Assembly: GCA_017651425.1 (NCBI GenBank)
Contig: JAGCCZ010000019.1
Location: 336 to 64,335, forward strand
DNA length: 64,000 nucleotides
Direction of reading: 5' to 3'
Source of the DNA: Bacteroidales bacterium
GTDB lineage: Bacteria; Bacteroidota; Bacteroidia; Bacteroidales; WCHB1-69
Shown here piece by piece: positions 29,609-43,552 of the stretch. Under the pieces are notes generated by a model that saw only the letters and a program-made list of their open reading frames with translations, had not been told where the DNA came from and made no database searches. The first letter of the stretch is position 1; every line of letters starts with the position of its first letter. Position numbers and translations under genes: made by a program.

Positions 29609-29611
29609 ACA

Positions 29612-30163
29612 TTATCCCAAATATTCCACGAACGCCTCCGCCTGGGCCTTCAGTGCGGCACGCTGCTCGTCGGTGAGGATCATGCGGCCCTCCGTCCATG
29701 CCTCTGCGTTGAGGGTGACACCCGTCTGTGGTTCAGCCATCACGTCAGCCTTGATGAAGGTGAGCAGTTCGGTGAGCTTCTCGCGGCACTTGCCCGTGGC
29801 CATCTGACCGCCGGCGCCGCTCAACGCCACCTTCTTGCCGTTCATGACCGTCGGCGTGGCGAAATCGTATGCCACCAAGGGGCGGGAAAGCCAATCCAGC
29901 ACGTTTTTCAGATGTCCGGGATAGCTGAAGTTGTATTCGGGGGTGAAAATCCAAAGGCCGTCGGCGTTGGCCACCGTCTCACGCAGCTTGGCCACCGCTG
30001 AGGGCGCGGGATATTCGATGTCCTGGTTGATGAACGGCAAGTCCGTGTAGTCCAAATAGGTGACTTCGGCAATGCCTGCCAAGTTCTTTTCCGCCTCTTG
30101 GGCGAGCTGCCGGTTGAAGGAGTCTTTTCTCAGCGAACCGACGATGAAGAGGATTTTTTTCAT
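29612..30163 (-). CDS. NAD(P)H-dependent FMN reductase family oxidoreductase
   Basis: 183 aa. MKKILFIVGSLRKDSFNRQLA and TPEYNFSYPG are typical of the family. Confidence 0.8.
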   Translation of the reverse strand: MKKILFIVGSLRKDSFNRQLAQEAEKNLAGIAEVTYLDYTDLPFINQDIEYPAPSAVAKLRETVANADGLWIFTPEYNFSYPGHLKNVLDWLSRPLVAYDFATPTVMNGKKVALSGAGGQMATGKCREKLTELLTFIKADVMAEPQTGVTLNAEAWTEGRMILTDEQRAALKAQAEAFVEYLG

Positions 30164-30188
30164 AAATGTGGATATTTGTATTTTTTAA

Positions 30189-30599
30189 TTAATTGTCAGA
30201 CTTTTTCCTCAAACTCACGATGGCCGCCACAACCTCCACCAAGCCGAGCACAAAATAGAGGTTGCTGATGGCATTGAAGCCCCATACCCACCATTCGAGG
30301 ACAATCCAGAGCATCAGGATGATGCCGCAGACGAGGACCGCCCACTGCGCGAGCGGATGCTTCTTGAAGAGCAGATACACTGCTGCTAATTGGGTAACAC
30401 CGTTCAGGAACAGCAGCACAAAGCCCGACGGGATGAAGTCGCGGAAGAAGATATCCGGCCAAGGCATTTTTGCACGCAGCATCTCTAACAGTGGCTCGCC
30501 GCCCCACGCTACACCCGTAGGGTCAATCCACATCATCACGGCACCGCCAATTGCGCCGATACCGATGAAAAGGGTCAGGATTTTTTCGAGTTTGAGCAT
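30189..30599 (-). CDS. Membrane protein, hypothetical (4 TM)
   Basis: 136-aa hydrophobic ORF. Confidence 0.5.
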   Translation of the reverse strand: MLKLEKILTLFIGIGAIGGAVMMWIDPTGVAWGGEPLLEMLRAKMPWPDIFFRDFIPSGFVLLFLNGVTQLAAVYLLFKKHPLAQWAVLVCGIILMLWIVLEWWVWGFNAISNLYFVLGLVEVVAAIVSLRKKSDN

Positions 30600-30645
30600 A
30601 CAATTATGGATTAATTATACAATGTAATATCAGTGTTAATTGTTG

Positions 30646-30873
30646 TCAGCGTTTTCGTTTTGTTTTCATTAGGCAGATAAACAGAATGACAATCAGCACA
30701 TTGCTGACAATAAGAGAGATGAAGAGACTGTAAATGTGATGATAGTAATTGGATTCGGTCAGACAATAGTTGCCATCAACTAATGCGGCAATGCACATTA
30801 GGACTTCTAAAACGACGATGGCGATAAAAGCTAAAACTGAGAAGATTATTAATACTTTTCTCTTGTTATTCAT
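30646..30873 (-). CDS. Small membrane protein, hypothetical
   Basis: 75 aa from ATG 30873 (MNNKRKVLIIFSVLAFIAIVV...) with two TM helices. Confidence 0.4.
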   Translation of the reverse strand: MNNKRKVLIIFSVLAFIAIVVLEVLMCIAALVDGNYCLTESNYYHHIYSLFISLIVSNVLIVILFICLMKTKRKR

Positions 30874-31040
30874 ACCATTATTATTTCGAACGGCAAAAGT
30901 ACACAAAATGTGTGGATGCTTTTCATTTGGTGAAAAAATGAAATAGCATTCATTTTACGTTATATCTTTTATAAAAGAAATTTGCCGTAAATAATCATCT
31001 TTATATTTTTGGAAGATAAAAATCGCCGTGAATAAAAATT

Positions 31041-31104
31041 TTCCCGCAAACTGCGCAGAATAACGCAGACCTTTTTCTGCGTATATCAGCGAATTCTGCG
31101 GGAG
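31041..31104 (+). repeat. Triple-hexamer palindromic repeat, copy R3 (orientation A)
   Basis: ttcccgcaaactgcgcagaataacgcagacctttttctgcgtatatcagcgaattctgcgggag. Lies 3 nt from the stop of ORF 31108. Confidence 0.9.
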
Positions 31105-31107
31105 GAA

Positions 31108-31620
31108 TTATTCGCGGAACTCACTGATTTTATGATAGGCGTATCCAGACACCGTATCGAATACGAGCAAGTGATCGAACGGGGTGCGGATACAACGGTA
31201 ATATTGCAGATGGTCTTCCGGAACGACTTGCCATTCAATGAACACGGCGAAATATGCTTGTGGCAACGAACCGAATTTTTGTTCAATCTCTTCCCTACTG
31301 CAAGGCTTTAGTGTGCTGTCTGGGACAATATCCGAGTAACAACAAGGTTTTGACATAAGTGCAGACTCCACTTCGGCAGGTGAAGCTTTATATCGGAACC
31401 AGTAATTGTAAAGCGAACCATTTTCTCTTGCCCCAACACACTCGCGGTCAGCCAATTCCGGATACAAATCACCAATGTTGTATTCCTGTGCATTCCCATT
31501 CCACCAATTTGCCCATTTATGCTTAATCTTTGAGCAAGAAACCGATGCGAAAATGAAAAAGCATCCGAGGACTGCAACAACTACAAATTGTATAATCCGA
31601 TTATTTCTCATAGCAATCAT
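31108..31620 (-). CDS. Secreted or lipoprotein hypothetical protein
   Basis: 170 aa with N-terminal FVVVAVLGCFFIFASVSCSK. The stop is 3 nt from repeat copy R3. Confidence 0.5.
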   Translation of the reverse strand: MIAMRNNRIIQFVVVAVLGCFFIFASVSCSKIKHKWANWWNGNAQEYNIGDLYPELADRECVGARENGSLYNYWFRYKASPAEVESALMSKPCCYSDIVPDSTLKPCSREEIEQKFGSLPQAYFAVFIEWQVVPEDHLQYYRCIRTPFDHLLVFDTVSGYAYHKISEFRE

Positions 31621-31640
31621 CCAGCTTTTGATGTAATAAA

Positions 31641-31704
31641 TGCCCGCAAACTGTGCAGAATAACGCAGACCTTTTTCTGCGCAAGTCTGCGAGTTCCGCG
31701 GGAG
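31641..31704 (+). repeat. Triple-hexamer palindromic repeat, copy R4 (orientation A)
   Basis: tgcccgcaaactgtgcagaataacgcagacctttttctgcgcaagtctgcgagttccgcgggag. Lies 9 nt from the stop of ORF 31714 and 20 nt from the start codon at 31620. Confidence 0.9.
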
Positions 31705-31713
31705 AATAATCCG

Positions 31714-32211
31714 TTAACAAAACACCCACGCATACACCCCCGCCCCGATCAGGCACGGAATCAGTCCGATGAGCATTCCCCACAGCGACTGCACGAAGTG
31801 GTACTTTTTCTGATGGTAGGCCGCGTCCATGTGTTCGGTGCCGGGGAGGCGCACGGACTTCATATTGGCGAAGAGCACCCAGTCGAGAAAGAAGCAGTCG
31901 TACCAGTCGATGACGAACCAGATGCCGTAGCTCAGCGCGAACGCCGACCAGAAGTTATAGGCGCTGGCCAGCTTCATCAGCCCGAGCATCACAGCCAGGG
32001 TAACGAGCAGCGCAAAGCCCTTCTTAAGCAGCACGGTCTTGGTGAAGAACTTCGACGGCACGCGCTCGTGTGTCTTGAAGTACTCCTCTTGGATGTCCTC
32101 CGGATAGTCGTGAATCCACCACACGGGGTTCTTCACGAGCGGGATCAGAATCATGGCCGTGAACGCGGCGGTCATGACGAGGGTTTCGATGATGATGATG
32201 GTCCAGTTCAT
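31714..32211 (-). CDS. Membrane protein, hypothetical
   Basis: 165 aa, about 4 TM. The stop is 9 nt from repeat copy R4. Confidence 0.5.
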   Translation of the reverse strand: MNWTIIIIETLVMTAAFTAMILIPLVKNPVWWIHDYPEDIQEEYFKTHERVPSKFFTKTVLLKKGFALLVTLAVMLGLMKLASAYNFWSAFALSYGIWFVIDWYDCFFLDWVLFANMKSVRLPGTEHMDAAYHQKKYHFVQSLWGMLIGLIPCLIGAGVYAWVFC

Positions 32212-32243
32212 AGTTTTAGTGATCAGTGAACAGTGAATAGTGA

Positions 32244-33440
32244 TCAGTGAGTTGGTGAATGGTTAACGATTAGGTTCCGTTGTTTGGAGAACGGTGATTG
32301 GGTGTTCGTTTTGACTTTTTTCTTCTCCCCCAGCACGCACCACCGCACAAACGGAATCCGACGGACGGTTTCGTAAATTAGTGGCGACAGGGTGAAAACC
32401 GCTATAATAAGAATAAGGTACAGTGCCACTGGCGGTAGCTGAGTATAGACTTTCATCATATAGCCAAGGCTGACAATCACCAGATAATGAACGATGTAGA
32501 TGCCAAAACTGGAGCGGGTCATATATCCGGCAAAGGCGTTTGTCTTGTCGAATTTGGCAATGAACCAGCCCATCATGGCAAGGCACATAAACCCGCCATA
32601 GATGCAGTTGAAGGGGTCGGCAAGATACTGCGGTGTGGTGTTGTTCTCGCCGTATGTGTCAAATAAAAGATAAACGCAAGCCACAATGGCGCAAGCCATA
32701 TCTATCCACCAACCATCAGACAGGTATTTTTGTATCTTCTTTGACGAGAAGCAATAATAGCCCAGCAGGAAGAAAATAAGGTAGAACAGCGGCTTGTAGA
32801 GGTTGTAGAGTCCGTCTGCGGATTCGGGGCGCGGGTTGAAAATAAGCGTTTGCCCGCCGAGCCAATACAGCACACAAATACCAAAGAGCATAATCTTCGG
32901 AAGATACCAATATTCGTAGTCGTGAAAGTGTTTTTTAACCTTCTTATTCTTTATTTTGAAATGCCAGTCCCTCGTTATCCGCCGTATCAGCAGCAGAATC
33001 AGCGAGAACAGCCACAGATCCTGGATAAACCACAGCGGTCCCGTTCCGCTGACCGCCCAAACGCAAAACTTGAGAGGCTGTGGCACCGAAGCCAGCACAT
33101 CCGTCCCGCCCACGTGCGTGTTGAAGTAGCCCTCCATCCAATGGAACACGAACAGTCCGATGGTGGATGGGACCAGCAGCTTTAGGGTTCGGGACTTAAA
33201 CCACTCCTTGCCGGAATGTCTGTCTAACGCGTACTTTGCGCTGATGCCCGCCAAAATGAACAGCAGCGGCATGAACCAAGGATAGAGGATGTACATCAGC
33301 ACATCCTGGTACTGCGGACCGTCGCCGAAACCGCCCACACCGCCGAAAACGCCCTTGTTGTTGTAAAAGTAGATGACGTGATACAACAACACCAACATCA
33401 CGGTGACCCAACGCAGATTGTCAACCCAGTATTTTCTCAT
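32244..33440 (-). CDS. Acyltransferase family 3 membrane protein (OafA/OpgC-like)
   Basis: Start chosen at MRKYWVDNLRWVTVMLVLLYH, a typical acyltransferase_3 N-terminus. About 10 TM. Confidence 0.7.
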   Translation of the reverse strand: MRKYWVDNLRWVTVMLVLLYHVIYFYNNKGVFGGVGGFGDGPQYQDVLMYILYPWFMPLLFILAGISAKYALDRHSGKEWFKSRTLKLLVPSTIGLFVFHWMEGYFNTHVGGTDVLASVPQPLKFCVWAVSGTGPLWFIQDLWLFSLILLLIRRITRDWHFKIKNKKVKKHFHDYEYWYLPKIMLFGICVLYWLGGQTLIFNPRPESADGLYNLYKPLFYLIFFLLGYYCFSSKKIQKYLSDGWWIDMACAIVACVYLLFDTYGENNTTPQYLADPFNCIYGGFMCLAMMGWFIAKFDKTNAFAGYMTRSSFGIYIVHYLVIVSLGYMMKVYTQLPPVALYLILIIAVFTLSPLIYETVRRIPFVRWCVLGEKKKVKTNTQSPFSKQRNLIVNHSPTH

Positions 33441-33512
33441 AAAGCACTTTTTTCCGGCGGCAAAAGTACGCAAAATGCGGGGATGTGTTTTCATTTGGCG
33501 GAAAAATATTAT

Positions 33513-33577
33513 CTCCCGCAGAACTCGCAGATTTACGCAGAAAAAAGTCTGCGTTAGTCTGCGAAATCTGCGGGAAA
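33513..33577 (-). repeat. Triple-hexamer palindromic repeat, copy R5 (orientation B, the only inverted full copy)
   Basis: ctcccgcagaactcgcagatttacgcagaaaaaagtctgcgttagtctgcgaaatctgcgggaaa. Sits in the divergent promoter region between 33440 (-) and 33618 (+). Confidence 0.9.
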
Positions 33578-33585
33578 TATTTTTG

Positions 33586-33593
33586 TATTTTTG
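33586..33593 (+). promoter_or_regulatory. Bacteroidetes-type -7 promoter box (TAnnTTTG) for the M28 peptidase gene
   Basis: TATTTTTG lies 25 nt upstream of ATG 33618 and 8 nt after the end of repeat R5. Confidence 0.5.
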
Positions 33594-33617
33594 CCGCTGA
33601 ATTTAATACCCGAAGCA

Positions 33618-34892
33618 ATGAAAAAAACGACTCTGTTAGTATTGGCGTTTATATTGACGGCGATGATTCCTGGAACGCCGCTACAGGCGCAGGATCTGGA
33701 GTATTACAAACAGATTGTCAAAGAACTGAGCTCCGCAAAGTACCAGGGGCGCGGCTATGCCTACGGCGGCGCCAACAAGGCAGGGAAATACCTGTTGAAA
33801 GAGTACAAGAAAGCAGGCGTGGACGAAGTGAGATGCCAGCCGTTCACTATCGACATCAACACCTTCCCCGGCAAGATGGAAATGTTTGTGGATGGCAAGA
33901 AATTGACCCCGGGTGTCGATTTCTCGATGCGTGAATACTCGCCGGGCGTGCGCGGCACCTACAAACTCTACTATGTCGATACGAACAACTACGATGCCGA
34001 GAAGATGTTTGCCGACCTGGCGAAACCCGAGTACAAGGACTGCTTCGTGGTCTGCGACTTCTGGTTCTCCTACCGTCATTACGGCGACTTCCAGAAGATC
34101 TGGGGCGGTACTGAATGCGCCAACGCCGGGATGATCCAGACGTGGCCTCCCTTGCTGAAATTCTACAAGGCCTACGGCGAGAAGGTGATGGGCAAGCCCG
34201 TCATCTGGGCCACCTCCGACTTCCCGAAGGATGCCAAAACCATCACCGTCAACATCGAGAACGAGTTTCTGAAGGACTACGAACTCTTCAACGTCATCGC
34301 CAAGGTGGAGGGTCGGCGGCACGACAGCTGCTTCGTTTTCACGGCGCACTACGATCACCTCGGCAACCTCGGCAAGAAGGTGTTCTATGCAGGTGCCAAC
34401 GACAACGCCTCCGGCACCGCCGCTATCGTGACCCTCGCGGCCTACTACGCCCAAAACCGTCCCGAATACGATATGTACTTCATCGCCTTCTCCGGCGAGG
34501 ACGCCAACCTTCGCGGCTCGGAATATTACGTGGATCACAACCCCGTCGTGCCGCTCTCGCAGATTAAGTACCTGTTCAACATCGATATGATCGGCGACAA
34601 CAACCCGGTGCAGTACTGCGAGGTCAGCGACGAGGGATTGCGCGGTTACGCTTTGATGGAGCGAATCAACGATGAGAAACACCATTTCAAAGGATTGAAC
34701 CGTGCCGAGTTGGAGGGCAACAGCGACCACTACCCGTTCGCCCTGCGCCACGTGCCGTGCATCCTCTTCGAGAACGAGAGCGGCGACGCGTTCCAGTACT
34801 ACCACACCGTCAACGACGACTGGGAGCACGCGGTGTTCGACACGTACGAGCCGCTGTTCCGGTTGGTGCGGGATTTCATCGAAAAGTATTGA
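33618..34892 (+). CDS. M28 family zinc peptidase (aminopeptidase)
   Basis: Signal peptide MKKTTLLVLAFILTAMIPG. AHYDHLG, GANDNASGTA, FSGEDANLRGSEYY, NIDMIG and SDHYPF are the M28 ligand and active-site blocks. Confidence 0.85.
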   Translation: MKKTTLLVLAFILTAMIPGTPLQAQDLEYYKQIVKELSSAKYQGRGYAYGGANKAGKYLLKEYKKAGVDEVRCQPFTIDINTFPGKMEMFVDGKKLTPGVDFSMREYSPGVRGTYKLYYVDTNNYDAEKMFADLAKPEYKDCFVVCDFWFSYRHYGDFQKIWGGTECANAGMIQTWPPLLKFYKAYGEKVMGKPVIWATSDFPKDAKTITVNIENEFLKDYELFNVIAKVEGRRHDSCFVFTAHYDHLGNLGKKVFYAGANDNASGTAAIVTLAAYYAQNRPEYDMYFIAFSGEDANLRGSEYYVDHNPVVPLSQIKYLFNIDMIGDNNPVQYCEVSDEGLRGYALMERINDEKHHFKGLNRAELEGNSDHYPFALRHVPCILFENESGDAFQYYHTVNDDWEHAVFDTYEPLFRLVRDFIEKY

Positions 34893-34900
34893 TATTTAGC

Positions 34901-34964
34901 TTCCCGCAGATTTCGCAGATTAACGCAGACTTTTTTCTGCGGGTTCTGCGAGTTCAGCGGGAAT
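34901..34964 (+). repeat. Triple-hexamer palindromic repeat, copy R6 (orientation A)
   Basis: ttcccgcagatttcgcagattaacgcagacttttttctgcgggttctgcgagttcagcgggaat. Starts 8 nt after the M28 peptidase stop. Confidence 0.9.
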
Positions 34965-35067
34965 AACATCTCCAGTAGATCTCACAAACTGGTGCTAAAA
35001 AGCACTAACCTCAATGTGTATCTTGCACAATGTGGGATATGACACTTCACTCTGGAATTCGCATCAC

Positions 35068-35514
35068 CTATCGAGATAACTGACAAACCGGTTTTTCTTG
35101 CAGATAGATTGTCACTGCCTTAATCACCGAAATCCCTTCCGATTCCTCTTTGCCAACAAACAAGTCAAAGTCGGCAAACATGTGGAAGTGGTCACCAGTC
35201 TCATAGATGATGTTCAGGATATATTGCATCTCCGAGAAGCCATCCTCATCAAAATGAAATTGTACATTGGATGATTCCAGGTCACACAAGCACATAATGT
35301 GGTAATCAGTACCGGAAAAGGTCTCCTTTGGGGCAGGTTTCACCTCCAAACAACGGACACTTATCATATCCGATGTGGTATTTGACAGTGGGAAACTCAA
35401 TTCCCCCTTTTTGCTCTGCAACAATTCCATAAACTGAAGTAGCCCATCTTTGTCAAGAGTAATCTCGACATAGTTGGTAGGGAAGAATATTAGTTTACTC
35501 ATAGGTGATAACAT
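35068..35514 (-). CDS. Hypothetical cytoplasmic protein (possibly immunity-like)
   Basis: 148 aa with no signal peptide. I recognise no family. Sits just downstream of the YafQ/DinJ pair. Confidence 0.4.
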   Translation of the reverse strand: MLSPMSKLIFFPTNYVEITLDKDGLLQFMELLQSKKGELSFPLSNTTSDMISVRCLEVKPAPKETFSGTDYHIMCLCDLESSNVQFHFDEDGFSEMQYILNIIYETGDHFHMFADFDLFVGKEESEGISVIKAVTIYLQEKPVCQLSR

Positions 35515-35593
35515 GCTTTATCTTGAATGAAACAGCAGATGTTTTTTGTCTCCGCGTATCACACGTATATGCACGTGATGTTTTTGCAAGATA

Positions 35594-35869
35594 CTATTGA
35601 CCAAACAATTCCACGTGACTTCCCAATCTGACGAGCTGGATGATATTGTTCACTTCGTCAATCCAAATCAGCAGAAAATCCCCTTGAATATGGCATTCCA
35701 TACAACCTTTGTACCTGCCGTGGAGTTTATGGGGAAAATATTCCGCTGGAATAGGTTTCCCTTTTTGCAACAAAAGGAGAACTTCCCTAAGCAGTGCGAC
35801 TTTTTCAACGTTATTCTTGATACGTTTAAAGTCTTTTTTGTACTGAGTGGTTGGTTGCAGTTTTTTCAT
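35594..35869 (-). CDS. Type II toxin, YafQ/RelE family mRNA interferase
   Basis: 91 aa. YKKDFKR...HKLHGRYKGCMECHIQGDFLLIW...LVRLGSHVELF matches the YafQ pattern. Overlaps the antitoxin stop by 4 nt. Confidence 0.8.
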   Translation of the reverse strand: MKKLQPTTQYKKDFKRIKNNVEKVALLREVLLLLQKGKPIPAEYFPHKLHGRYKGCMECHIQGDFLLIWIDEVNNIIQLVRLGSHVELFGQ

Positions 35870-36117
35870 TCTGTCGCACTCAAATCATCTAACAAGTCGT
35901 CCACACTATCATAGACCTTATTTTGGTTACGCCCTGACATGGCTTCTGCGATAGCCGCTTTTGTTATATCGTTGGGCTCATCATAAACCACGTCAAGCAG
36001 AACGCTTTCCACATAGTTGTTGAGCGTTCTGTTCACCTTGGCGGCATTTTGTTTCAGCCGTTCCAACAGGTCTGTTCTAAGACGGAACGAAGTGTTCTTT
36101 CTTACAATAGTTTCCAT
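35866..36117 (-). CDS. Type II antitoxin (RHH / DinJ-RelB-like)
   Basis: 83 aa. SFRLRTDLLERLKQNAAKVNRTLNNYVESVL is a ribbon-helix-helix-like N-terminus. Translationally coupled to the toxin. Confidence 0.7.
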   Translation of the reverse strand: METIVRKNTSFRLRTDLLERLKQNAAKVNRTLNNYVESVLLDVVYDEPNDITKAAIAEAMSGRNQNKVYDSVDDLLDDLSATE

Positions 36118-36204
36118 TTGTAATACAATTAAATATTTTTGGCTGCAAAAATAATATTTTTTTTCGGATAGAAAGCAGATTGTCTAAAAAAAGTATTTTT
36201 GTCG

Positions 36205-36229
36205 AAAATAACGAACCACTATGTCAAAG
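36205..36229 (+). repeat. 25-bp perfect direct repeat, left copy (duplicate of the promoter-proximal leader and first 3 codons of gene 37219)
   Basis: aaaataacgaaccactatgtcaaag is identical to 37203-37227. Confidence 0.9.
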
Positions 36230-36256
36230 CGCAAGTCTGCGAGTTCCGGGGGAAAA
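36230..36256 (+). repeat. Right half of the palindromic repeat, copy R7 (orientation A)
   Basis: cgcaagtctgcgagttccgggggaaaa. The left arm is missing. It begins directly after the 25-bp duplicated segment 36205-36229. Confidence 0.75.
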
Positions 36257-36294
36257 TATTTTTCCTATTTTCGCGCCCATAAAAACATCCCGTT

Positions 36295-37113
36295 ATGAAG
36301 AAATACAGAGCCCCCATCCTCCTGTTCGCCATTTTCGAGGTCATTGCCGTATCGCTTTGGCTCTCAACAGGTAACCTCTTCTTTCTGCTGAACTTTTCCT
36401 ACATCGGCATCTGCCTCGGCGTCGGGGGAATATTGATGACAGCAGGGTGGAAACACGCCCGTGAGTTCGTGCAGTTCACCGTAGGCAGCTACATTCTGGT
36501 GTTCCTCGGCCTTGTCTGTCGCGAGAACATGCAGATAGAGGGATTCTGGTACTATCTGCTCTCCGGGGTTGTCGGGGCGGGGGTGCTGCACTACCTCATC
36601 GCCAAGATCTTCGGGCCGTTGCTGTTCGGGCGCGGCTGGTGCGGGTTTGCCTGCTGGACCGCGATGATTCTCGACCTGTTGCCGTACAAGCAGCCCGCGA
36701 AACTACGGAAATCCTTCGGATGGGTGCGCTATGTGATGTTCGCGCTGTCGCTCGCCATCGTCATCCTGCTGATGTGCCTCGGCAAAGCCGACAAAACCAC
36801 GATGTTCTACCTTTTCGTGGCCGGGAATGTGCTCTACTACGCCGTCGGAATCGTCCTGGCTGTCGTGTTGAAGGACAACCGCGCCTTCTGCAAGTACATC
36901 TGCCCCATCACCGTCTTCCTCAAACCGATGAGCTACTTCTCCTTACTGCGCATCAAGTGCGACGAGGAGAAGTGCATCCATTGCGACAAGTGCCTGAAAG
37001 TCTGCCCGATGGAGGTGGAGGTCAACAACAACTCGCGCAAGCGGAAGAACGCCACCGAGTGCATCCTCTGCCAGCAGTGCAAGAAGGCGTGCCCGGTGGG
37101 GGCGCTGAAATAG
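36295..37113 (+). CDS. Membrane-bound 4Fe-4S binding protein (NapH/MauN-like)
   Basis: 272 aa, about 6 TM, with C-terminal CIHCDKCLKVCP and CILCQQCKKACP ferredoxin motifs. Confidence 0.7.
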   Translation: MKKYRAPILLFAIFEVIAVSLWLSTGNLFFLLNFSYIGICLGVGGILMTAGWKHAREFVQFTVGSYILVFLGLVCRENMQIEGFWYYLLSGVVGAGVLHYLIAKIFGPLLFGRGWCGFACWTAMILDLLPYKQPAKLRKSFGWVRYVMFALSLAIVILLMCLGKADKTTMFYLFVAGNVLYYAVGIVLAVVLKDNRAFCKYICPITVFLKPMSYFSLLRIKCDEEKCIHCDKCLKVCPMEVEVNNNSRKRKNATECILCQQCKKACPVGALK

Positions 37114-37117
37114 TTCT

Positions 37118-37181
37118 CTCCCGCAGATCTCGCAGAACATCGCAAATCTTTTTTCTGCGCAAATCAGCGAGTTCAGCGGGA
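37118..37181 (+). repeat. Triple-hexamer palindromic repeat, copy R8 (orientation A)
   Basis: ctcccgcagatctcgcagaacatcgcaaatcttttttctgcgcaaatcagcgagttcagcggga. Starts 4 nt after the 4Fe-4S protein stop. Confidence 0.9.
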
Positions 37182-37188
37182 TAATTTT

Positions 37189-37196
37189 TATTTTTG
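37189..37196 (+). promoter_or_regulatory. Bacteroidetes-type -7 promoter box for lipoprotein gene 37219
   Basis: TATTTTTG lies 23 nt upstream of the ATG and 7 nt after the end of repeat R8. Confidence 0.5.
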
Positions 37197-37202
37197 CACT
37201 CC

Positions 37203-37227
37203 AAAATAACGAACCACTATGTCAAAG
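37203..37227 (+). repeat. 25-bp perfect direct repeat, right copy (contains the ATG of the lipoprotein gene at 37219)
   Basis: aaaataacgaaccactatgtcaaag is identical to 36205-36229, 998 bp upstream. Confidence 0.9.
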
Positions 37228-38406
37228 AGAATCTTAAGCATTCTGTTTGTAGCACTGTCGGCAACGCTCTTCTTGACTGCCTGCAAGGTCGGCGGGAAGA
37301 CGACGACAGTCACGATGGAGGAGTTTCGGAACACCGACCTTTCGCGGATGATTATACCGGACTCCATCCTGACAAACCCCGACTACTGTTCCCAAAAGGA
37401 TGAGTTTATGTTCATCGAAAAAACCTCCGAGTTCGAGCCCATCGGGTATCGAGGCCGTGACTTCCAACGGTTCTACATCCATTACGACAGCGTCCGTTTT
37501 ATGGGCAATGGAGTCTATAAGGTGGAGGGACGCACCCGCTACCGCGACACTATCCGGCTTTTCTCCGGGACCATCACGCTGGACTCTATGCGCCTGAACA
37601 AAGGGAAGCACCTACCGTCAACGGGTAAATTCGGGAAGTTGTGCGGGCATTTCCAGTTCGATGAGGACGAATTTTCCGGCGGCGGGGTCCTGACGGGCAA
37701 AATGTGGATTGGCTTCGCAAAAATTAACGGGCGGTTCTACTACGATGCTTTTAAGTTAGGTTTGGCCGACGGTTACAGTAACCGCCAGTACGAGGGTGTG
37801 TGGACTTCGAAAGGCCTCACCCGGATGGAGAAATGCAACTGGGGCGATTTCCGGATACCCGATTCAAGAGGATTAGGGTCGGGTGAGGCTGAATTTATTT
37901 CCAGAGATTCGTGTCTCGACCGCGGATGGCGTATTTATACTTACGGTTGGGCCGAGAGTGATTCTTTACAGGCTATATATCAGGCGGATATGCAATGGTT
38001 TACCCACGAGGAAGACTATGTCATTCCCTATTCCGGACGGCTGCAGCGGTATCTGAAAGAGTACGGCTACGGAAAGAGTCAGCCCTCGGCAAAAGTGGTT
38101 TTGGGGACTATCCCGGTGACCTATGACGAATTTGAGATTTGGGTGTTGTTGCAAGGTGGCAAATTATGGACTACCACAAGCCAATACGCGCACGCCGACA
38201 GTGCAGGCATTATGTTTGCCTATATGCGTATGGGGCAATTGAGATTCCCAGACGGGGATTCCGATGCGATGTGGGAAGCTTTTTTTGATGATTACATCGT
38301 GTTGCAAAAGGAGCATCCTGCCCTTTTCGACCAATACCGCAAACAGTTGTCCGAAAAATGGAACCAAGCATTTGATGGCTGGAAGAAAGAGATGTACGGG
38401 GAGTAG
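37219..38406 (+). CDS. Lipoprotein, hypothetical, paralogue of 22863..24176
   Basis: 395 aa with lipobox LFLTAC. Shares FQRFYIHYD, DGYSNRQY and CNWGDFRIPDS blocks with 22863..24176. Confidence 0.55.
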   Translation: MSKRILSILFVALSATLFLTACKVGGKTTTVTMEEFRNTDLSRMIIPDSILTNPDYCSQKDEFMFIEKTSEFEPIGYRGRDFQRFYIHYDSVRFMGNGVYKVEGRTRYRDTIRLFSGTITLDSMRLNKGKHLPSTGKFGKLCGHFQFDEDEFSGGGVLTGKMWIGFAKINGRFYYDAFKLGLADGYSNRQYEGVWTSKGLTRMEKCNWGDFRIPDSRGLGSGEAEFISRDSCLDRGWRIYTYGWAESDSLQAIYQADMQWFTHEEDYVIPYSGRLQRYLKEYGYGKSQPSAKVVLGTIPVTYDEFEIWVLLQGGKLWTTTSQYAHADSAGIMFAYMRMGQLRFPDGDSDAMWEAFFDDYIVLQKEHPALFDQYRKQLSEKWNQAFDGWKKEMYGE

Positions 38407-38433
38407 GGACACAGTGCATTGCGTCTCCACAAT

Positions 38434-38464
38434 TTTCTGCGCATCTCAGCGTGTTATGCATAAA
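38434..38464 (+). repeat. Decayed right half of the palindromic repeat, copy R9
   Basis: ttttctgcgcatctcagcgtgttatgcataaa resembles TTTTCTGCGCAAATCAGCGAGTTC.GCGGGAAA. Starts 27 nt after the lipoprotein stop. Confidence 0.5.
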
Positions 38465-38485
38465 TGTGGAAGTCCTTAACCGTAT

Positions 38486-39823
38486 TTATTCGGTGACACT
38501 TCTTAACAAAGTCATCCATTTGTCCATCCATCCCACCAATGGGGCGGGACTGCTGAGCATTCCGCTGTTGTATTGGAAGTTAAGCATTGAGAAACGCATT
38601 CGATACCGAGGACTATATTTTTTCGTATAAACAGCGAGGCTGTTGCCGCTGATGTTGTTTTCGGCTTTGACCTCCACGGGTATGATTTCATCATCCCATT
38701 GGATGACAAATTCCACTTCAGCCGTTCCGGGGGATGTCCAATAATAGGGTTTCTGATCGTCCAGAAGAGGCATGATGGACTGAAGCACTGCGTTTTCAGC
38801 TATGGCTCCTTTGAACTCTGTATAGTTAGCGATAGGATCTGTGACAACCGTTGCGGGCAGATGTGCCAAACGGCGGAGCAAGCCGCAGTCGCAGGCATAA
38901 ACCTTGAAAGCATCTGTTTCCTCGTATGCAGAAAGCGGCATTCCAGGCTTGCTGATACTGAATATGCGATGAATTATCCCCGCATCTTCCAACCACAAGA
39001 GGGCGTCTTCGTAGTCTTTGGAACGTGCGCCCGTTTTGATGACCTTCCATACGAACTTCCGGTTTTCCTTCGATAGTTGGGCTGGCAGTGAGTGCCAGAC
39101 GGCATGAATGCGCGGAATCTCGCGTGGTTCAGCGTATTTGGCAAAGTCGAGTTCATAAAGGTCAAGAATGCCTTGTAAAGTCGATTCCACCTCACCAATG
39201 CCCTTGTCTTCAAGCAGTGACACAATGGCTTCCGGCATGCCTCCAGACACTTGGTAGCGCCTGTATTCTGTACGTAACTTGTTCATGATGATTTCCGGCA
39301 AATGGCGGATTTCATCCAATGAATTGATATACTCGTATGTACGCACATCGCTGGCACGCAGGAATTCCTTGAAGGTGACAGGGAACATGTTGATGATTCT
39401 CACCTTACCGACAGGCACCGTCATCCTGCGCTTTTTCACCGCCACACCCAGCAACGAACCTGCCGCAATGATGTGATACAGGGGTGCTTCATCACAGAAA
39501 TACTTCAAACTGTTAAATGCCTCTTCGCATTCCTGTATCTCATCGAAAATCACCAGTGTCTCGCCGGCAATGATGGGCTGTTCGCAATAGAGCGTCAACT
39601 CCTTGATCAGGCGTTTAGGGTCCTTCGTGATCTCAAACAACGACTTCAGTTCCGGTTGCCGGTCGAAATCAAACTTCACACAATACTTGAAACACTCCTT
39701 GCCGAATGTCTCCATAGCCCACGTCTTACCAATTTGGCGTGCGCCTTTCAACAGAATCGGTTTCCTATCAGGAGCCTCTTTCCATGCTTTGAATTGGTTG
39801 ATGATATCTCTTTCTATTTTCAT
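38486..39823 (-). CDS. AAA-family ATPase with C-terminal DUF4143-like domain
   Basis: Start at MKIERDIINQF. Walker A is GARQIGKT and Walker B is VIFDEIQ. Confidence 0.75.
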   Translation of the reverse strand: MKIERDIINQFKAWKEAPDRKPILLKGARQIGKTWAMETFGKECFKYCVKFDFDRQPELKSLFEITKDPKRLIKELTLYCEQPIIAGETLVIFDEIQECEEAFNSLKYFCDEAPLYHIIAAGSLLGVAVKKRRMTVPVGKVRIINMFPVTFKEFLRASDVRTYEYINSLDEIRHLPEIIMNKLRTEYRRYQVSGGMPEAIVSLLEDKGIGEVESTLQGILDLYELDFAKYAEPREIPRIHAVWHSLPAQLSKENRKFVWKVIKTGARSKDYEDALLWLEDAGIIHRIFSISKPGMPLSAYEETDAFKVYACDCGLLRRLAHLPATVVTDPIANYTEFKGAIAENAVLQSIMPLLDDQKPYYWTSPGTAEVEFVIQWDDEIIPVEVKAENNISGNSLAVYTKKYSPRYRMRFSMLNFQYNSGMLSSPAPLVGWMDKWMTLLRSVTE

Positions 39824-39935
39824 ATAACACATCGGAAAGTTCGATTTTGTGTATCACCGTTACACTTTTCCTAACTTTCGGCTGCAAAAATACAAAAATA
39901 TTCATTCACCTTTTCTATTGTTCTTTAGAAAAAAA

Positions 39936-40066
39936 TCCCTGCGGACTGTACAAAAACACAGAACTTCTCCTACATGATGCAAATTAGTCATCTTCTGCGG
40001 ACACTCAATACTTTACAGAACATCGCAGATCTTTTTCCTGCGCAAATCAGCGGGTTACGTAGGGTT
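39936..40066 (+). repeat. Decayed composite of the palindromic repeat, copy R10
   Basis: tccctgcggactgtacaaaaacacaga (left-arm-like) ... ttctgcggacactcaatactttacagaacatcgcagatctttttcctgcgcaaatcagcgggttacgtaggg. The right part aligns well to copy R8. Ends 5 nt before the WG-repeat gene stop. Confidence 0.6.
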
Positions 40067-40071
40067 TACCA

Positions 40072-40575
40072 TCAGTATCTATCCAGAATATTTCCCTGCT
40101 TGTCAAGTTCGAACCAATGACCACGACCTTTCATCACCTGCACTGTGCCGAATTGGAATCGGCCCACGAGATCGTATTTTAACGGAATGACTACATTCCC
40201 CGTTGTGTCAATATAGCCCCATTTCTTCCGCAGACATACTCCCGCTCTTTCTTCATAAAAATAAGACACATTTTTGAATTGTGGTTCGATGACTATGATT
40301 GCATTTGTGTCGGCGAATCCCCATTTGTTCCCAACACGTACTGGTATCAAGCCGTCTTTACCCCACCAGGGATATTCTTCGTATGCCCTAAACCATTCAA
40401 TGGATGAGTCCGAAACACGGCATTTTTCCTGAAAAGCTTCTATCCAAGCCTCTTTTGTCATCTGATCCAATTGTCCATCCTTATTTTGCGCCAAACAACT
40501 TACGGAGAACATCATCGCAAGAGTGCATACTAAAAACAGTGTTTTAGTTCCCAAAGTGTTTCTTTTAAATGCCAT
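40072..40575 (-). CDS. Secreted WG-repeat (KWG) protein
   Basis: Start chosen at MAFKRNTLGTKTLFLVCTLAMMFSVSCLAQ. Contains NKWGFAD and KKWGYID WG repeats. Confidence 0.6.
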   Translation of the reverse strand: MAFKRNTLGTKTLFLVCTLAMMFSVSCLAQNKDGQLDQMTKEAWIEAFQEKCRVSDSSIEWFRAYEEYPWWGKDGLIPVRVGNKWGFADTNAIIVIEPQFKNVSYFYEERAGVCLRKKWGYIDTTGNVVIPLKYDLVGRFQFGTVQVMKGRGHWFELDKQGNILDRY

Positions 40576-40681
40576 ATTTCCAAACATCCAAACGAGCGAT
40601 TCTTTAAGCAATATCTTATAAAACAACGCAAAAATATAAAATCCTGCTTAATAAAACTCAAATTTTTTTTACGCAAATTCT

Positions 40682-40745
40682 CTCCCGCAGACTTCGCAGA
40701 CTGACGCAGATCTTTTTTCTGCGTAAATCAGCGGGTTCTTCGGGC
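40682..40745 (+). repeat. Triple-hexamer palindromic repeat, copy R11 (orientation A)
   Basis: ctcccgcagacttcgcagactgacgcagatcttttttctgcgtaaatcagcgggttcttcgggc. Lies 6 nt from the ICMT-like gene stop. Confidence 0.9.
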
Positions 40746-40751
40746 ATCCCA

Positions 40752-41423
40752 CTACCACACAAACGGAATCACTTTGTACCGAACTTTCTGTTTATACTCC
40801 GTGTATCCTTCAAGTCCCTGCTCCAAGACGGCCTCCTCGTTACGGATGCGCTTGGCGATGATGGGGATGTAGAGCAGCATGATCAGAAACGACCACGGGG
40901 AAGCCAACACCATGGGCATAGCGAGGAAAAGTACCAATGTGGCGGCGTACATCGGATGCCGAACAATGCTGTACAGTCCCGTGTCCACCACTTTCTGATG
41001 CTCCTGCACCTCGATGGTGCGCGACAGCCAGACGTTTTCGCGGAGCACCTCGGCGTAGAGTGCGTAGCCGATCAGGAAAACCACGGAGGCCGCATATACC
41101 GCCCAATCCGGCAGCAGGCACCATTGGAAACGATAGTTGAGGCCAGCCATTACGAACATCGCGAGGAACATTAGGCCACTTAACGCGACCACCCACTTCT
41201 GTTCCCCCTGCTTCTCCTTGGCATCCAATCGTTTGCACAACAGCTCGGGCTGGCGGAGCAACAGCACCACGCCCGCAATGAGCATCGGCCCGAACAGCAA
41301 GGCGATGAAAAGCCATCCCTGCCAGTAGGCGAAGGTGCCCGCCGGCAAAAACAGCAACGCACCCACCAGCACTAATCCGGCGAGGAACTTTGTCAGGGCT
41401 TGGAAAAAGAGTTTTGAGGTCAT
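40752..41423 (-). CDS. Isoprenylcysteine carboxyl methyltransferase (ICMT)/phospholipid methyltransferase family membrane protein
   Basis: 223 aa, multi-TM. TGLYSIVRHPMY is the family signature. Confidence 0.75.
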   Translation of the reverse strand: MTSKLFFQALTKFLAGLVLVGALLFLPAGTFAYWQGWLFIALLFGPMLIAGVVLLLRQPELLCKRLDAKEKQGEQKWVVALSGLMFLAMFVMAGLNYRFQWCLLPDWAVYAASVVFLIGYALYAEVLRENVWLSRTIEVQEHQKVVDTGLYSIVRHPMYAATLVLFLAMPMVLASPWSFLIMLLYIPIIAKRIRNEEAVLEQGLEGYTEYKQKVRYKVIPFVW

Positions 41424-41441
41424 ATCTTATTTGTTTTGTTT

Positions 41442-41506
41442 CTCCCGCAGACTGCGCAGACTGACGCAGACTGTTTTCAGCGTAAATCGGCGAGTTCTGC
41501 TGGAAA
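41442..41506 (+). repeat. Triple-hexamer palindromic repeat, copy R12 (orientation A)
   Basis: ctcccgcagactgcgcagactgacgcagactgttttcagcgtaaatcggcgagttctgctggaaaa. Lies 13 nt from the Fic stop and 18 nt from the ICMT-like start codon. Confidence 0.9.
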
Positions 41507-41519
41507 ACATATTTCCCGT

Positions 41520-42548
41520 TTATTTCAACACCTCCCAATGTCCGCTCTTGTTGCTGCCGACGCGAATGATATAGCCTGCTGTCTTCAGCTCGCCGAGTCG
41601 GCGCTTGACGGTGGCTTCAGACACGCCTAACAGAGCACCGTACGCCGCATAATTGAGACTGTTGTCTTTCAACACAGCCTGATAGAGCCGCTCCGTTATC
41701 GGGTCAGCGAACCGTTTTATCGGGTCAGAAAGCGGTTTTATCGGGTCAGCGGACTGGGATTCCTTGAACTCCTCAATCTCTTTGCGGATGTTGCGGGTGT
41801 GCTGTTCCAACATAAACCGACGGAATGGTTCTGTACTTTCCTGTTCCCTTGAATCAACCAACGACTGGATGTATTCTGCTTTGTCAGCTTTGTCGATTTT
41901 CACGGGCACCAGTCCGAATTCATATTGCAGATGATTCATCACCAATCTGGACATGCGTCCGTTGCCATCTACCCGGGGATGAATGGTCACCAATTGATAA
42001 TGGGCATCGAACGTCAACAGATATTTGGCAATCAAATCGTTAGAATTGACAAGCTGCCGTCTCATTTCGTTCAACTGCAGACAGAACTCCTGCAATTTTT
42101 CTGGAACTTTCCGATAATCCATGTAGGAGCGTCCACCGATTCCAGCGGTGACGCTGACTAAGCGCAAGTCCCCTTTGGATGCATCAAATGAACCTTGCAC
42201 TGTATTGTACGCACTTCCAGTGTTTTTCATAACCAGTGCGGACATCGTTTTCAGCATTTCCACGGAAAAATCTGTATGTTGTTCGGCAAGCCGCATCGAA
42301 TGTTCGTAAGCCGCTTTCAGGTCAAGGTTCATCAGCTGTTCCTGCATACTTCGTCCCTTCGCGGAAATACCCTCATCAAACAGCAGCTGGTTCTCAATTT
42401 CCGTGACAGTACTCCCTTCGATAGCCGTGGAATGGGTAATAATGGAATACAGATAGAACTTTTTGTAGTCTCTCTGTTCCGCAATTCCCAACGACTGGTA
42501 CTCATTGAGTGCGTCAAGCAATTGTTGTTCCTGTTTCGTGACCATCAC
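41520..42548 (-). CDS. Fic family protein with a C-terminal winged-helix domain
   Basis: 342 aa. HPRVDGNGRMSR matches the Fic motif HxFx(D/E)GNGRxxR except R in place of F. The C-terminal region is VKRRLGELKTAGYIIRVG. Confidence 0.8.
   Translation of the reverse strand: MMVTKQEQQLLDALNEYQSLGIAEQRDYKKFYLYSIITHSTAIEGSTVTEIENQLLFDEGISAKGRSMQEQLMNLDLKAAYEHSMRLAEQHTDFSVEMLKTMSALVMKNTGSAYNTVQGSFDASKGDLRLVSVTAGIGGRSYMDYRKVPEKLQEFCLQLNEMRRQLVNSNDLIAKYLLTFDAHYQLVTIHPRVDGNGRMSRLVMNHLQYEFGLVPVKIDKADKAEYIQSLVDSREQESTEPFRRFMLEQHTRNIRKEIEEFKESQSADPIKPLSDPIKRFADPITERLYQAVLKDNSLNYAAYGALLGVSEATVKRRLGELKTAGYIIRVGSNKSGHWEVLK
41696..41755. repeat. 21-bp tandem repeat x3 inside the Fic gene
   Basis: TTATCGGGTCAG recurs at 41696, 41717 and 41738. 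It encodes DPIK/DPIK/DPIT heptads (SADPIKPLSDPIKRFADPITE) on the minus strand. Confidence 0.8.
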
Positions 42549-42564
42549 AGCTGTTTTTCAGCGG

Positions 42565-42572
42565 CAAAAGTA
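42565..42572 (-). promoter_or_regulatory. Bacteroidetes-type -7 promoter box for the Fic gene
   Basis: TACTTTTG on the minus strand, 17 nt upstream of ATG 42548 and 18 nt from repeat R13. Confidence 0.5.
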
Positions 42573-42590
42573 CTATTTTTCCTGATATTT

Positions 42591-42655
42591 CTCCCGCAGA
42601 CTGCGCAGACTGACGCAGACTTTTTCAGCGTAAATCGGCGAGGTCTGCGGGAAAA
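42591..42655 (+). repeat. Triple-hexamer palindromic repeat, copy R13 (orientation A)
   Basis: ctcccgcagactgcgcagactgacgcagactttttcagcgtaaatcggcgaggtctgcgggaaaa. Differs from R12 by one indel and two substitutions. Lies 4 nt from the flavodoxin stop. Confidence 0.9.
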
Positions 42656-42659
42656 TGAA

Positions 42660-43502
42660 CTACCGTATCACCTTCGTGAACACCGGCGCTTTGTCTTTCT
42701 CCACCGTCACATAGACCTGGATCTCGTCGGTGGGCATGTCCGGCTTGTCCTCGCGGGGAAGGTTGACGGCGGTGAAGAGGTATTCCGTGCCGTCGGGCAG
42801 GGAGCGCACCGCCACCGTCTTGGCCTTGGCATTCAGCATCTGATAGCCATCGACAGCCGCGTCGAAGATGGCCGCTTCCTCTTCGCTAACCTCGTGTTGC
42901 GCAGGGAATTCCTCCAACTGTATGAATTCACCTTCAAGGAATCCGTTGGCTTTCAGGAAATTGTCAACTTCTTTGGGCATCGCCTCCATGCGGGCGGCGC
43001 GGACACCGTAGCCGGGCAGAATCTCCGCATTGGGCTCAGCTGACGCCAAGTCCTTCGCACTGGACTCCAGACCGCCGCTGCCGAAGGTGCAGAACGGCAC
43101 AATCTTCTTGCCACTCAAATCGTTGCTGAGAAGGAACTTCTGCACTGGCGGCACGTATGTGCCGAACCAGATGGGATAGCCGATAAAGATGATGTCATAA
43201 TCAGCAATGTTGGATTTGATCGGCTGAATGTCGGGGATGTTCCCTTGTTCATGTTCCTGCTTGCAGCGCTCAATGGTGGCTTGGAAGTCGCCATCGTATG
43301 GGTTCACCGCCACGATCTCTTCGATGTCGGCACCGAGCTTGCCGGAGATCTCCTCGGCCACGGCTTTGGTGTTGCCGGTTTGGGAATAATAGAGGACGAG
43401 CATCTTGGGGGCTTCCTCTTTCGGGGTTTCTTTCTTGGAACCGCAGGAGACGGCGGTCAGCGTCACGACTGCGAGAAGCAGTATCAATTTGGGACTTTTC
43501 AT
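42660..43502 (-). CDS. Flavodoxin-domain lipoprotein with an extra C-terminal domain
   Basis: 280 aa with lipobox AVSCGS. LVLYYSQTGNTKAVAEEI is a flavodoxin FMN-binding N-terminus. Confidence 0.65.
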   Translation of the reverse strand: MKSPKLILLLAVVTLTAVSCGSKKETPKEEAPKMLVLYYSQTGNTKAVAEEISGKLGADIEEIVAVNPYDGDFQATIERCKQEHEQGNIPDIQPIKSNIADYDIIFIGYPIWFGTYVPPVQKFLLSNDLSGKKIVPFCTFGSGGLESSAKDLASAEPNAEILPGYGVRAARMEAMPKEVDNFLKANGFLEGEFIQLEEFPAQHEVSEEEAAIFDAAVDGYQMLNAKAKTVAVRSLPDGTEYLFTAVNLPREDKPDMPTDEIQVYVTVEKDKAPVFTKVIR

Positions 43503-43552
43503 AGGATTGTTCTTTTATTTCAAGATGCAAAAATACTATTTTCTCGGATATT

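Follow-up and report, generated by a model that had tools for sequence, protein, structure and literature searches.

Homology-facilitated illegitimate recombination (HFIR) and "displacement" arrays that contain orphan gene remnants are known from the T6SS (type VI secretion) effector-immunity arrays of V. cholerae and from the orphan 3' ends of Rhs and contact-dependent inhibition (CDI) loci (PMC5361080, PMC3240628). One end of each repetitive extragenic palindromic (REP) sequence bears a conserved tag, GTAG or CGTC (PMC3733652), and a Bacteroidetes-specific TnpA-REP subclass, 2.6, has been described (PMC6006769). Here we analyze a 64-kb stretch of DNA (the window) from an uncultured rumen member of the Bacteroidales (contig JAGCCZ010000019.1), in which the 5' end of a lipoprotein gene is present twice and the orphan copy runs into one arm of a palindromic repeat. 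The orphan is quite probably the fossil of a lipoprotein gene truncated in the distant past, an old recombination scar at a palindrome that has since been inherited.

The 25-mer AAAATAACGAACCACTATGTCAAAG occurs exactly twice on the plus strand of the window, at positions 36205 to 36229 and 37203 to 37227, with no further copy in the window when up to three mismatches were allowed. The number expected by chance is 0, and matches were found in 0 of 100 dinucleotide shuffles. Allowing one mismatch lengthens the duplication to 28 nt. The right copy is native and comprises the leader of the lipoprotein gene and its first three codons, ATG TCA AAG. The left copy is an exact duplicate of that leader and those codons, and it sits as an orphan in the divergent intergenic region of a YafQ/antitoxin module. 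The same -7 box, TATTTTTG, stands upstream of both copies, at 36194 to 36201 (plus strand) on the orphan side and at 37189 to 37196 (plus strand) on the native side. Between the two copies are a half-repeat, a -7-like box, a gene for a 4Fe-4S protein, and a full palindrome at 37118 to 37181. A preliminary description of this DNA had reported the two copies, one native and one orphan, the similar -7 boxes, and the features in between, and the sequence, nhmmer, and Pfam results bear out each of these points.

Related loci, 58 in all (designated with L-numbers), were gathered from rumen and gut metagenomes, with the leader sequence and the three proteins (lipoprotein, antitoxin, and 4Fe-4S protein) as queries, and were sorted by what follows the antitoxin-side promoter. 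Directly 3' of the left copy the window reads CGCAAGTCTGCGAGTTCCGGGGG, which is the right arm of a 64-nt palindromic repeat whose left arm and loop are absent (36230 to 36253, plus strand). An nhmmer model built from the window's palindromes matched 36228 to 36253 at model positions 38 to 63, the right arm only, in agreement with the earlier suggestion of a breakpoint inside the palindrome. The illegitimate joint, AAAG/CGCAAG (…ATGTCAAAG|CGCAAG…), falls at 36229-36230 on the plus strand, with a possible microhomology of 1 to 2 nt (G or AG). For comparison, the intact repeat in L011 and L013 reads …TTTTTTC[A/T]G|CGCAAGTC….

The joint between the stub and the right arm was present in 16 loci representing 10 distinct haplotypes, at the same base every time. 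Because it was recovered from independent ENA, Logan, and JGI assemblies from several studies, the joint is not an assembly artifact. Five of the junction haplotypes have the exact 25-mer. The other five have 3 to 5 substitutions in the stub, with the common derived changes ACGGACCACG and ATGTTAAAG; the decayed stubs of L012, L035, and L057 carry ATGTTAAAG together with ACGGACCACG, and in L030 the ATG has become GTG, with loss of the start codon. The 4Fe-4S genes of the junction haplotypes differ by 4 to 6.5% at the nucleotide level, and the polymorphism surrounding the joint is a mosaic. Since the same base is joined in 10 haplotypes whose 4Fe-4S genes are this far apart, the joint is one old event that was inherited, or was moved by homologous recombination, among co-resident lineages of rumen Bacteroidales.

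The untruncated state, in which the toxin-antitoxin module and the same intergenic region are followed by an intact lipoprotein gene, is present in four haplotypes (L017, L029, L033/34, and L054). This result identifies the left copy as an orphaned lipoprotein 5' end, as had been proposed. The orphan-side -7 box is unchanged in 10 of 10 junction haplotypes and is also invariant in the four haplotypes in which the intact lipoprotein gene is driven from it; more than 10 species conserve the native box ahead of the lipoprotein gene. Other genes found at the position of the stub are gene Y (L015 and L031) and a flavodoxin-like gene with the shared leader AAAAACGAACCACTATG (L016). In five loci (L023, L024, L025, L028, and L030) the stub is present and no lipoprotein gene follows the 4Fe-4S gene, and in L027, which has no 4Fe-4S gene, the stub and its right arm continue directly into the flank of an ICMT gene. 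A full palindrome precedes the 4Fe-4S gene in L011, L013, L014, and L038, and the right arm and following promoter in these loci are orthologous to window positions 36230 to 36294.

Homology between the two 5' regions extends from the -7 box to codon 3 and is ungapped in relatives; beyond either of these ends the two regions show no similarity. A larger tandem duplication, which the preliminary description had named as an outcome that would undercut it, is ruled out by these limits. The orphan of L044 matches native lipoprotein promoters of the L014 type exactly over 41 nt, from the -7 box to codon 3, and the form of the stub in the window has a 3-nt deletion in the spacer relative to this longer homology. 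Originally the homology would have covered 41 nt or more, and the 25-mer appears to be what the 3-nt deletion left of it in the lineage of the window. The two copies are still identical because both keep the ancestral promoter-leader sequence. Gene conversion is unnecessary as a cause of their identity because the 25-mer of the stub is also exact in genomes without a native copy.

The origin that we favor for the left copy, an old inherited scar, would have proceeded as follows. A lipoprotein gene, with its promoter -7 box and 5' leader, would once have stood beside the YafQ/antitoxin module. One illegitimate recombination event would have cut this gene after codon 3 and, with 1 to 2 nt of microhomology, joined the stub to a REP-like palindrome in front of the 4Fe-4S gene, at the end of its right arm nearest the loop. 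The joint would then have spread by homologous recombination, in an array whose units would be gained and lost through recombination at palindromes with fragile centers. One possible route, which we put close to an even chance, is a one-sided homologous and illegitimate exchange, similar to HFIR, between two alleles of a hypervariable locus, hyp148-TA-P-lipoprotein and hyp148-Rx-Fer4-R8-P-lipoprotein. Such an exchange would yield the arrangement in the window, duplication included, in one step, and it would also regenerate the start of the lipoprotein gene in the same event, which a simple deletion of a second lipoprotein copy would not do. Both parental arrangements are present in the population, toxin-antitoxin-promoter-lipoprotein in L017, L029, L033/34, and L054 and hyp148-full repeat-4Fe-4S-repeat-lipoprotein in L011 and L013, and the lipoprotein gene and hyp148 are candidates for the homologous anchor. 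Another route, plausible at rather less than even chances, is the deletion of a lipoprotein copy adjacent to the toxin-antitoxin module, starting at codon 4 and ending in the repeat arm; the genome concerned would also have had the downstream lipoprotein unit or have regained it afterward.

Several considerations weigh against an old inherited scar of this kind. An intermediate in which the toxin-antitoxin module is followed by an intact lipoprotein gene, the right arm, and the 4Fe-4S gene was not found among the collected loci, six additional lipoprotein variants included. A deletion from such a two-copy ancestor would give the same product as an exchange, and the direction of the event would thus be unreadable from the product. 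The orphan joint lies 3 to 6 nt further into the arm than other half-repeat joints, and the repeat may already have been halved when a later deletion reached into it, in which case the joint would not be a center break. The 25-mer is perfect in five haplotypes despite variable intergenic sequence around it, which could hint at constraint rather than neutrality. It is also possible that a recombinase or a REP-associated tyrosine transposase (RAYT) is encoded elsewhere in the genome; the scan covered the window and flanks of up to 10 kb.

The units of the array consist of a gene with its own promoter and a palindrome 3 to 15 nt after the stop codon. The preliminary description had proposed a search for empty sites among relatives, and such sites exist: the lipoprotein gene stands without the 4Fe-4S unit in L010, L021, L017, L029, L033/34, and L054. 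The 4Fe-4S unit lies between two full repeats in L011, L013, L014, and L038. Between hyp148 and the lipoprotein promoter, the sole difference between L013 and L010 is the 4Fe-4S gene plus one repeat. In the window, a lipoprotein-AAA14-WG block is bracketed by two repeats, the full repeat R8 (37118 to 37181, plus strand; 5 nt after the 4Fe-4S stop codon; 61.9 bits with nhmmer) and the full repeat at the 3' end of an ICMT-family gene (40683 to 40744, plus strand), whereas L023 to L025 and L028 lack the block and have one repeat. Therefore, repeat-bounded blocks are gained and lost, and the earlier claim that such units move or recombine holds. The AAA14 and WG genes also vary in presence between loci.

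The flank contexts of partial repeats number more than 15, independent of one another, and the break is almost always inside the T-rich loop (model positions 25 to 36); the joint behind the 3' hairpin of the lipoprotein gene is among them. This pattern suggests that the centers of the palindromes are recurrent, fragile breakpoints. For the repeat ahead of the 4Fe-4S gene, the point of breakage varies with context (model positions 12/13, 32, and 38). Adjacent genes for SbcD (411 amino acids; Metallophos/SbcD_C) and SbcC (1,136 amino acids; AAA_23/SbcC_Walker_B) are located at 1184 to 5845, approximately 30 kb from the center-broken palindromes. The SbcCD nuclease opens hairpin loops in other bacteria, and by analogy the presence of SbcD and SbcC would fit the fragility of the centers. 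In metatranscriptome contigs with loose ends at window position 37181 (runs X25 to X27), the 4Fe-4S gene and its repeat continue into at least two other right flanks, which resemble the contexts of window positions 41507 and 42655 and represent additional repeat-junction variants, from other animals.

The palindrome consensus is CCCGCAGAnnnCGCAGAnnnnCGCAGA, a T-rich loop (T6), and TCTGCGnnnnTC[A/T]GCGnnnTCTGCGGG, with three CGCAGA/TCTGCG motifs per arm spaced by approximately 10 nt. The outer ends read CCCGC…GCGGG, and GACG (CGTC on the opposite strand) is present within the innermost unit of many copies but not at an end. There are 13 copies in the window and 118 full copies across all of the collected loci, nearly all of them intergenic, and a copy is found 3 to 15 nt after the stop codon of almost every gene of the array. 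The copies are strongly clustered: 16 kb (28398 to 43616) contain 11, and the remaining 48 kb have just two half copies. Outside the cluster, the family is represented at 55394 to 55428 and at 63606 to 63670. The second of these reads "right arm, 9 nt, left arm," an everted order of the same kind (with about 10 nt) as in L049 and L031. A 17-kb locus with a similar gene order, L017 (RUG182), has almost no palindromes, just one half copy, and the abundance of palindromes appears to be specific to lineages.

As DNA, the palindromes fold into hairpins of -14 to -26 kcal/mol; R8 has -15.2 kcal/mol (z = -4.6). In an explicit three-helix test of 56 distinct copies, 88% of cells paired and there was only one double change, values equaled by the shuffle controls, and A·A mispairs were systematic at two positions. 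RNAalifold did not recover the hairpin from the 56 copies. The conserved feature is thus the sequence of the palindrome rather than a compensated structure, and a structured RNA element, such as a terminator or stabilizer, was rejected because the base pairs lack compensatory changes. The palindrome matched no Rfam family, and Rfam scans at the gathering threshold in the whole window and in E-value mode in the 28- to 44.5-kb region gave no pertinent match; plasmid and phage collections contained no match to the palindrome. The literature search returned no description of the family, only general papers on REP/RAYT, HFIR, and Neisseria minimal mobile elements (MMEs). The palindrome family and the array that it punctuates appear to be undescribed.

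The 5' module of the lipoprotein gene is joined to other genes as well. The promoter-leader precedes an unrelated flavodoxin-like gene in L012, L015, L016, L018, and L034. This flavodoxin/EFR1-like gene (MILYFSGCGNS…), with the promoter-leader TATATTTTTGCCCCCAAAAACGAACCACTATG (L012:3801, L015:1029, L016:7079, and L018:6997), has a palindrome or the antitoxin intergenic region on its 5' side. An unrelated secreted protein, Z, is headed by the leader and about 15 codons of the lipoprotein (MSKRIFSILLVALLV; L012:4718, L015:1946, L045:2053, and L052:2905). In L052 the order is Z, a degenerate right arm, the promoter, the leader again, and the lipoprotein gene; Z and the lipoprotein are thus in tandem with the same 5' module, and the architecture found in the window recurs at this locus. 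The recurrence of the module may reflect a mechanistic bias or selection for a module that confers strong expression or export. With the stub, the flavodoxin-like gene, and protein Z, this portable promoter-leader-signal-peptide module has been joined to at least three partners.

It is conceivable, at a probability that we consider low, that the palindromes are the crossover sites of an unrecognized recombinase-driven cassette-exchange system of rumen Bacteroidales, with the enzyme encoded elsewhere in the genome. Its cassettes would carry their own promoters, lie on either strand, and be bounded by outward-facing palindrome arms, with crossover in the loop, and the stub would be an off-target (secondary-site) product between a palindrome and the 5' end of the lipoprotein gene, the many half-palindromes likewise being off-target products. 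Such a system would account for the right arm on the left and the left arm on the right of every array unit regardless of gene strand, for the existence of both one-repeat and two-repeat states, and for the clustering in the loop of joints to non-repeat DNA. The everted arrangements at 63606 to 63670 and in L049 and L031 could be "empty units"; 10 of the 11 full copies in the window have the same orientation irrespective of gene strand, and the conservation of the sequence without covariation, together with the three CGCAGA motifs per arm, fits recognition by a protein. However, a recombinase is absent within the 64 kb, and no transposase, integrase, or HUH protein was found in the Pfam scan of the approximately 50 open reading frames (ORFs) of the window. 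The breaks in front of the 4Fe-4S gene differ by context rather than sharing one site, the orphan break is in the arm and not in the loop, and the 3' end of the lipoprotein unit is without a left arm, an absence that also led us to reject units with terminal inverted repeats similar to miniature inverted-repeat transposable elements (MITEs). All of the observed variation is limited to one chromosomal neighborhood, and homologous recombination between repeats or conserved flanks can account for it.

We consider it improbable that the left copy was kept for its function, with the promoter, leader, and start driving the 4Fe-4S gene by way of a 25-codon upstream ORF under purifying selection or gene conversion. 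This ORF, MSKRKSASSGGKYFSYFRAHKNIPL, runs from the orphan ATG to a TGA that overlaps the ATG of the 4Fe-4S gene as ATGA (36221 to 36298, plus strand); the overlap is TAATG in L030. That overlap, the unchanged -7 box in all 10 junction haplotypes, and the exact 25-mer in five haplotypes amid variable intergenic sequence speak for such a role. Rumen metatranscriptomes (Logan contigs) show expression of the region, and transcripts of the 4Fe-4S gene reach a greater contig depth than those of the lipoprotein gene; the contigs do not place transcript ends, and contig ends such as that at 37152, the center of a palindrome, are probably assembler breaks. The intact promoter of the stub points at the 4Fe-4S gene and, we infer, may add to its transcription. 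However, five other haplotypes have 3 to 5 substitutions in the stub, and L030 has lost the ATG. The frame is open in other haplotypes merely for lack of insertions and deletions and is also open where there is no stub (L011 and L013), and a function for the upstream ORF is speculative. The 4Fe-4S gene also has its own promoter, with a -7-like box, TATTTTCG, at 36266 to 36273 (plus strand) that is the perfect consensus TATTTTTG in L030, and in loci with an intact palindrome it is expressed from this promoter. A stub that is exact in the absence of the native copy makes gene conversion superfluous.

The preliminary description read the duplication as the scar of an insertion or duplication that had placed the unit in the 5' end of the lipoprotein gene. 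As a recombination scar within a palindrome that reading stands. The scar is neither a recent insertion nor a target-site duplication, given the 10 haplotypes, the decayed stubs, and the loci with only the stub. Insertion of the 973-bp segment into the lipoprotein 5' end by a transposon-like process or a template switch, leaving a target duplication of 25 to 41 nt, would explain the direct repeat on both sides of the segment and the single-copy "empty" toxin-antitoxin-promoter-lipoprotein sites of L017, L029, L033, and L054, and L052, with gene Z between two lipoprotein 5' modules, would be a second such architecture. Nevertheless, we regard it as very unlikely. Terminal inverted repeats and symmetric ends are lacking in the segment, which begins with a right-arm half palindrome and ends with a full palindrome followed, after approximately 7 nt, by a promoter. 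On its left side the duplication is bounded by a promoter box common to unrelated genes rather than by the end of an element, and the 4Fe-4S unit has other boundaries elsewhere. A target-site duplication of a transposon or insertion sequence (IS) was rejected since there are no defined ends, no transposase was found in the window, and the two copies are not always together. The stub persists without the right copy (L023 to L025, L028, and L030) and without the 4Fe-4S gene (L027), and the scar alone does not show an insertion into the lipoprotein gene of the window. We know of no target-site duplication as long as 25 to 41 nt. Chance similarity or an assembly chimera, for which nothing speaks beyond the metagenomic origin of the window, can be dismissed in view of the shuffles and of the independent assemblies that contain the joint.

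The scar lies in a run of small accessory genes at 28 to 44 kb, the edges of which (28.4 and 43.6 kb) adjoin ordinary genes. The array includes genes for CAT-like, GNAT, and HTH proteins, an FMN reductase, an acyltransferase, an M28 peptidase, the YafQ toxin and its antitoxin, the 4Fe-4S protein, the lipoprotein, AAA14/DUF4143, WG-repeat, ICMT, and Fic proteins, a flavodoxin, and EamA. The window has no tRNA genes. The YafQ-family toxin (35594 to 35869, minus strand; Pfam YafQ_toxin, E = 1e-28) and the 83-amino-acid antitoxin (35866 to 36117, minus strand) adjoin the orphan, or an intact lipoprotein gene, in related loci. A -7 box of the Bacteroidetes type (TAnnTTTG), read from the sequence at 36146 to 36153 on the minus strand, is unchanged in all aligned haplotypes and is the probable promoter of the toxin-antitoxin operon. 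TAnnTTTG is the consensus of Bacteroides promoters. The antitoxin gene has 98.7 to 100% nucleotide identity with those of L023 to L030, although the adjacent 4Fe-4S genes differ by 4 to 6.5%. The toxin-antitoxin module seems to have passed from lineage to lineage in recent times or else to be unusually constrained.

The 4Fe-4S gene (36295 to 37113, plus strand) encodes a 272-amino-acid membrane protein with a C-terminal 2×[4Fe-4S] ferredoxin domain (Pfam Fer4, Fer4_5, Fer4_7, Fer4_9, and Fer4_10). The lipoprotein gene (37219 to 38406, plus strand) encodes 395 amino acids that match no Pfam family, and its N terminus, MSKRILSILFVALSATLFLTAC, is a lipoprotein signal peptide with a lipobox. Homologs were found only in uncultured Bacteroidales from rumen and gut (RUG and RGIG metagenome-assembled genomes [MAGs]) and in a few other Bacteroidota. 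Compared with L010 to L018, the lipoprotein has 70 to 92% amino acid identity between species, whereas the neighboring M28, 4Fe-4S, and ICMT proteins have 94 to 98%, and this divergence suggests diversifying selection or frequent replacement of alleles. The gene ends in a small 3' hairpin of its own followed by a right-arm-only repeat (38402 to 38466, plus strand, with the right arm at 38429 to 38459), and this joint is also present in L010 to L014, L035, and L038. The hairpin, after the stop codon at 38402 to 38428, belongs to a second small palindrome family, GTAGAGACGC…GCGTCTCTAC, which has two tandem copies in L033/L034 (L033:6195-6270) and in L017 (9185-9260) and a looser relative at window positions 44651 to 44673. 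Elsewhere in the window, Cupin_5 (DUF985) genes paired with genes for a 270-amino-acid membrane protein without a Pfam family form paralogous copies at 13552 to 14865, 16385 to 17191, and 50614 to 51924, with 74 to 87% nucleotide identity; the membrane-protein gene is present in three copies.

The 25-mer scar itself is an ordinary kind of recombination scar that is unusually legible, and the palindrome family and its array are the more interesting lead. As a marker, the scar gives a base-by-base view of the turnover of small accessory genes at one locus of abundant, uncultured rumen Bacteroidales, and the genes turned over include those for the lipoprotein, the 4Fe-4S protein, the toxin-antitoxin pair, Fic, flavodoxins, and acyltransferases. 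If an enzyme acts on the palindromes, they would be part of a new cassette system. If there is no such enzyme, the locus would be a clear natural case of repeat-mediated and illegitimate recombination shaping the strain-level gene content of the gut.

Integron cassettes, each an ORF with attC, are like the units of the window in that an imperfect palindrome directly follows the stop codon of the gene and in that arrays vary by presence and absence and can include toxin-antitoxin modules. However, the window has its units on both strands, with a TAnnTTTG promoter for each, their palindromes lack R and L boxes and the GTTRRRY core, and the joints are at the center of the palindrome rather than at one end. 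No intI, attI, or Pc and no match to the Phage_integrase family was found in the window. An integron cassette array was rejected because there is no integrase, genes lie on both strands with their own promoters, and the repeat consensus lacks R''-L''/L'-R' boxes. Breakage at palindrome centers by SbcCD/Mre11-Rad50 has parallels here in the location of most half-repeat joints in the loop, the presence of SbcD and SbcC genes, and stable DNA hairpins. The palindromes shown to be substrates of SbcCD in vivo are far longer than arms of 28 nt. The arms in the window have that length and contain mismatches, the orphan joint lies 3 to 6 nt into the arm, and the link to SbcCD is one of analogy.

The repeats share features with the REP sequences and bacterial interspersed mosaic elements (BIMEs) of Enterobacteria and pseudomonads and with the neisserial intergenic mosaic element (NIME)/dRS3 arrays of Neisseria and their MMEs. 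Like these, they are short, multicopy, extragenic, imperfect palindromes just after stop codons (13 copies in the window and 118 full copies overall), they occur mostly in the gaps of runs of small accessory genes, the repeats mark the ends of rearrangements, and the genes between conserved flanks differ from strain to strain. Unlike REP/BIME sequences, the element has 64 nt with three CGCAGA/TCTGCG motifs per arm and a T-rich loop, appears to bear no terminal GTAG tag at the outer ends of the arms, is strongly clustered, and has no Rfam family. Its halves are not hairpins themselves, so a full copy does not equal two REP sequences, in contrast to REPINs. No RAYT (Y1 HUH) gene was found in the window and flanks of up to 10 kb.

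The scar differs from the remnants of HFIR and displacement arrays in being a 5' stub (promoter, leader, and three codons) where those are 3' orphans, and its illegitimate end lies in a palindromic repeat. As in those systems, one end would be anchored in conserved sequence and the other joined with little or no homology; here the joint has a microhomology of only G or AG, inside the 0 to 10 nt of an HFIR product, and the population contains both parental arrangements. In the product, a stub or orphan is what is left of the displaced gene, a conserved module can come to be duplicated, and such remnants are inherited and accumulate at a hypervariable locus.

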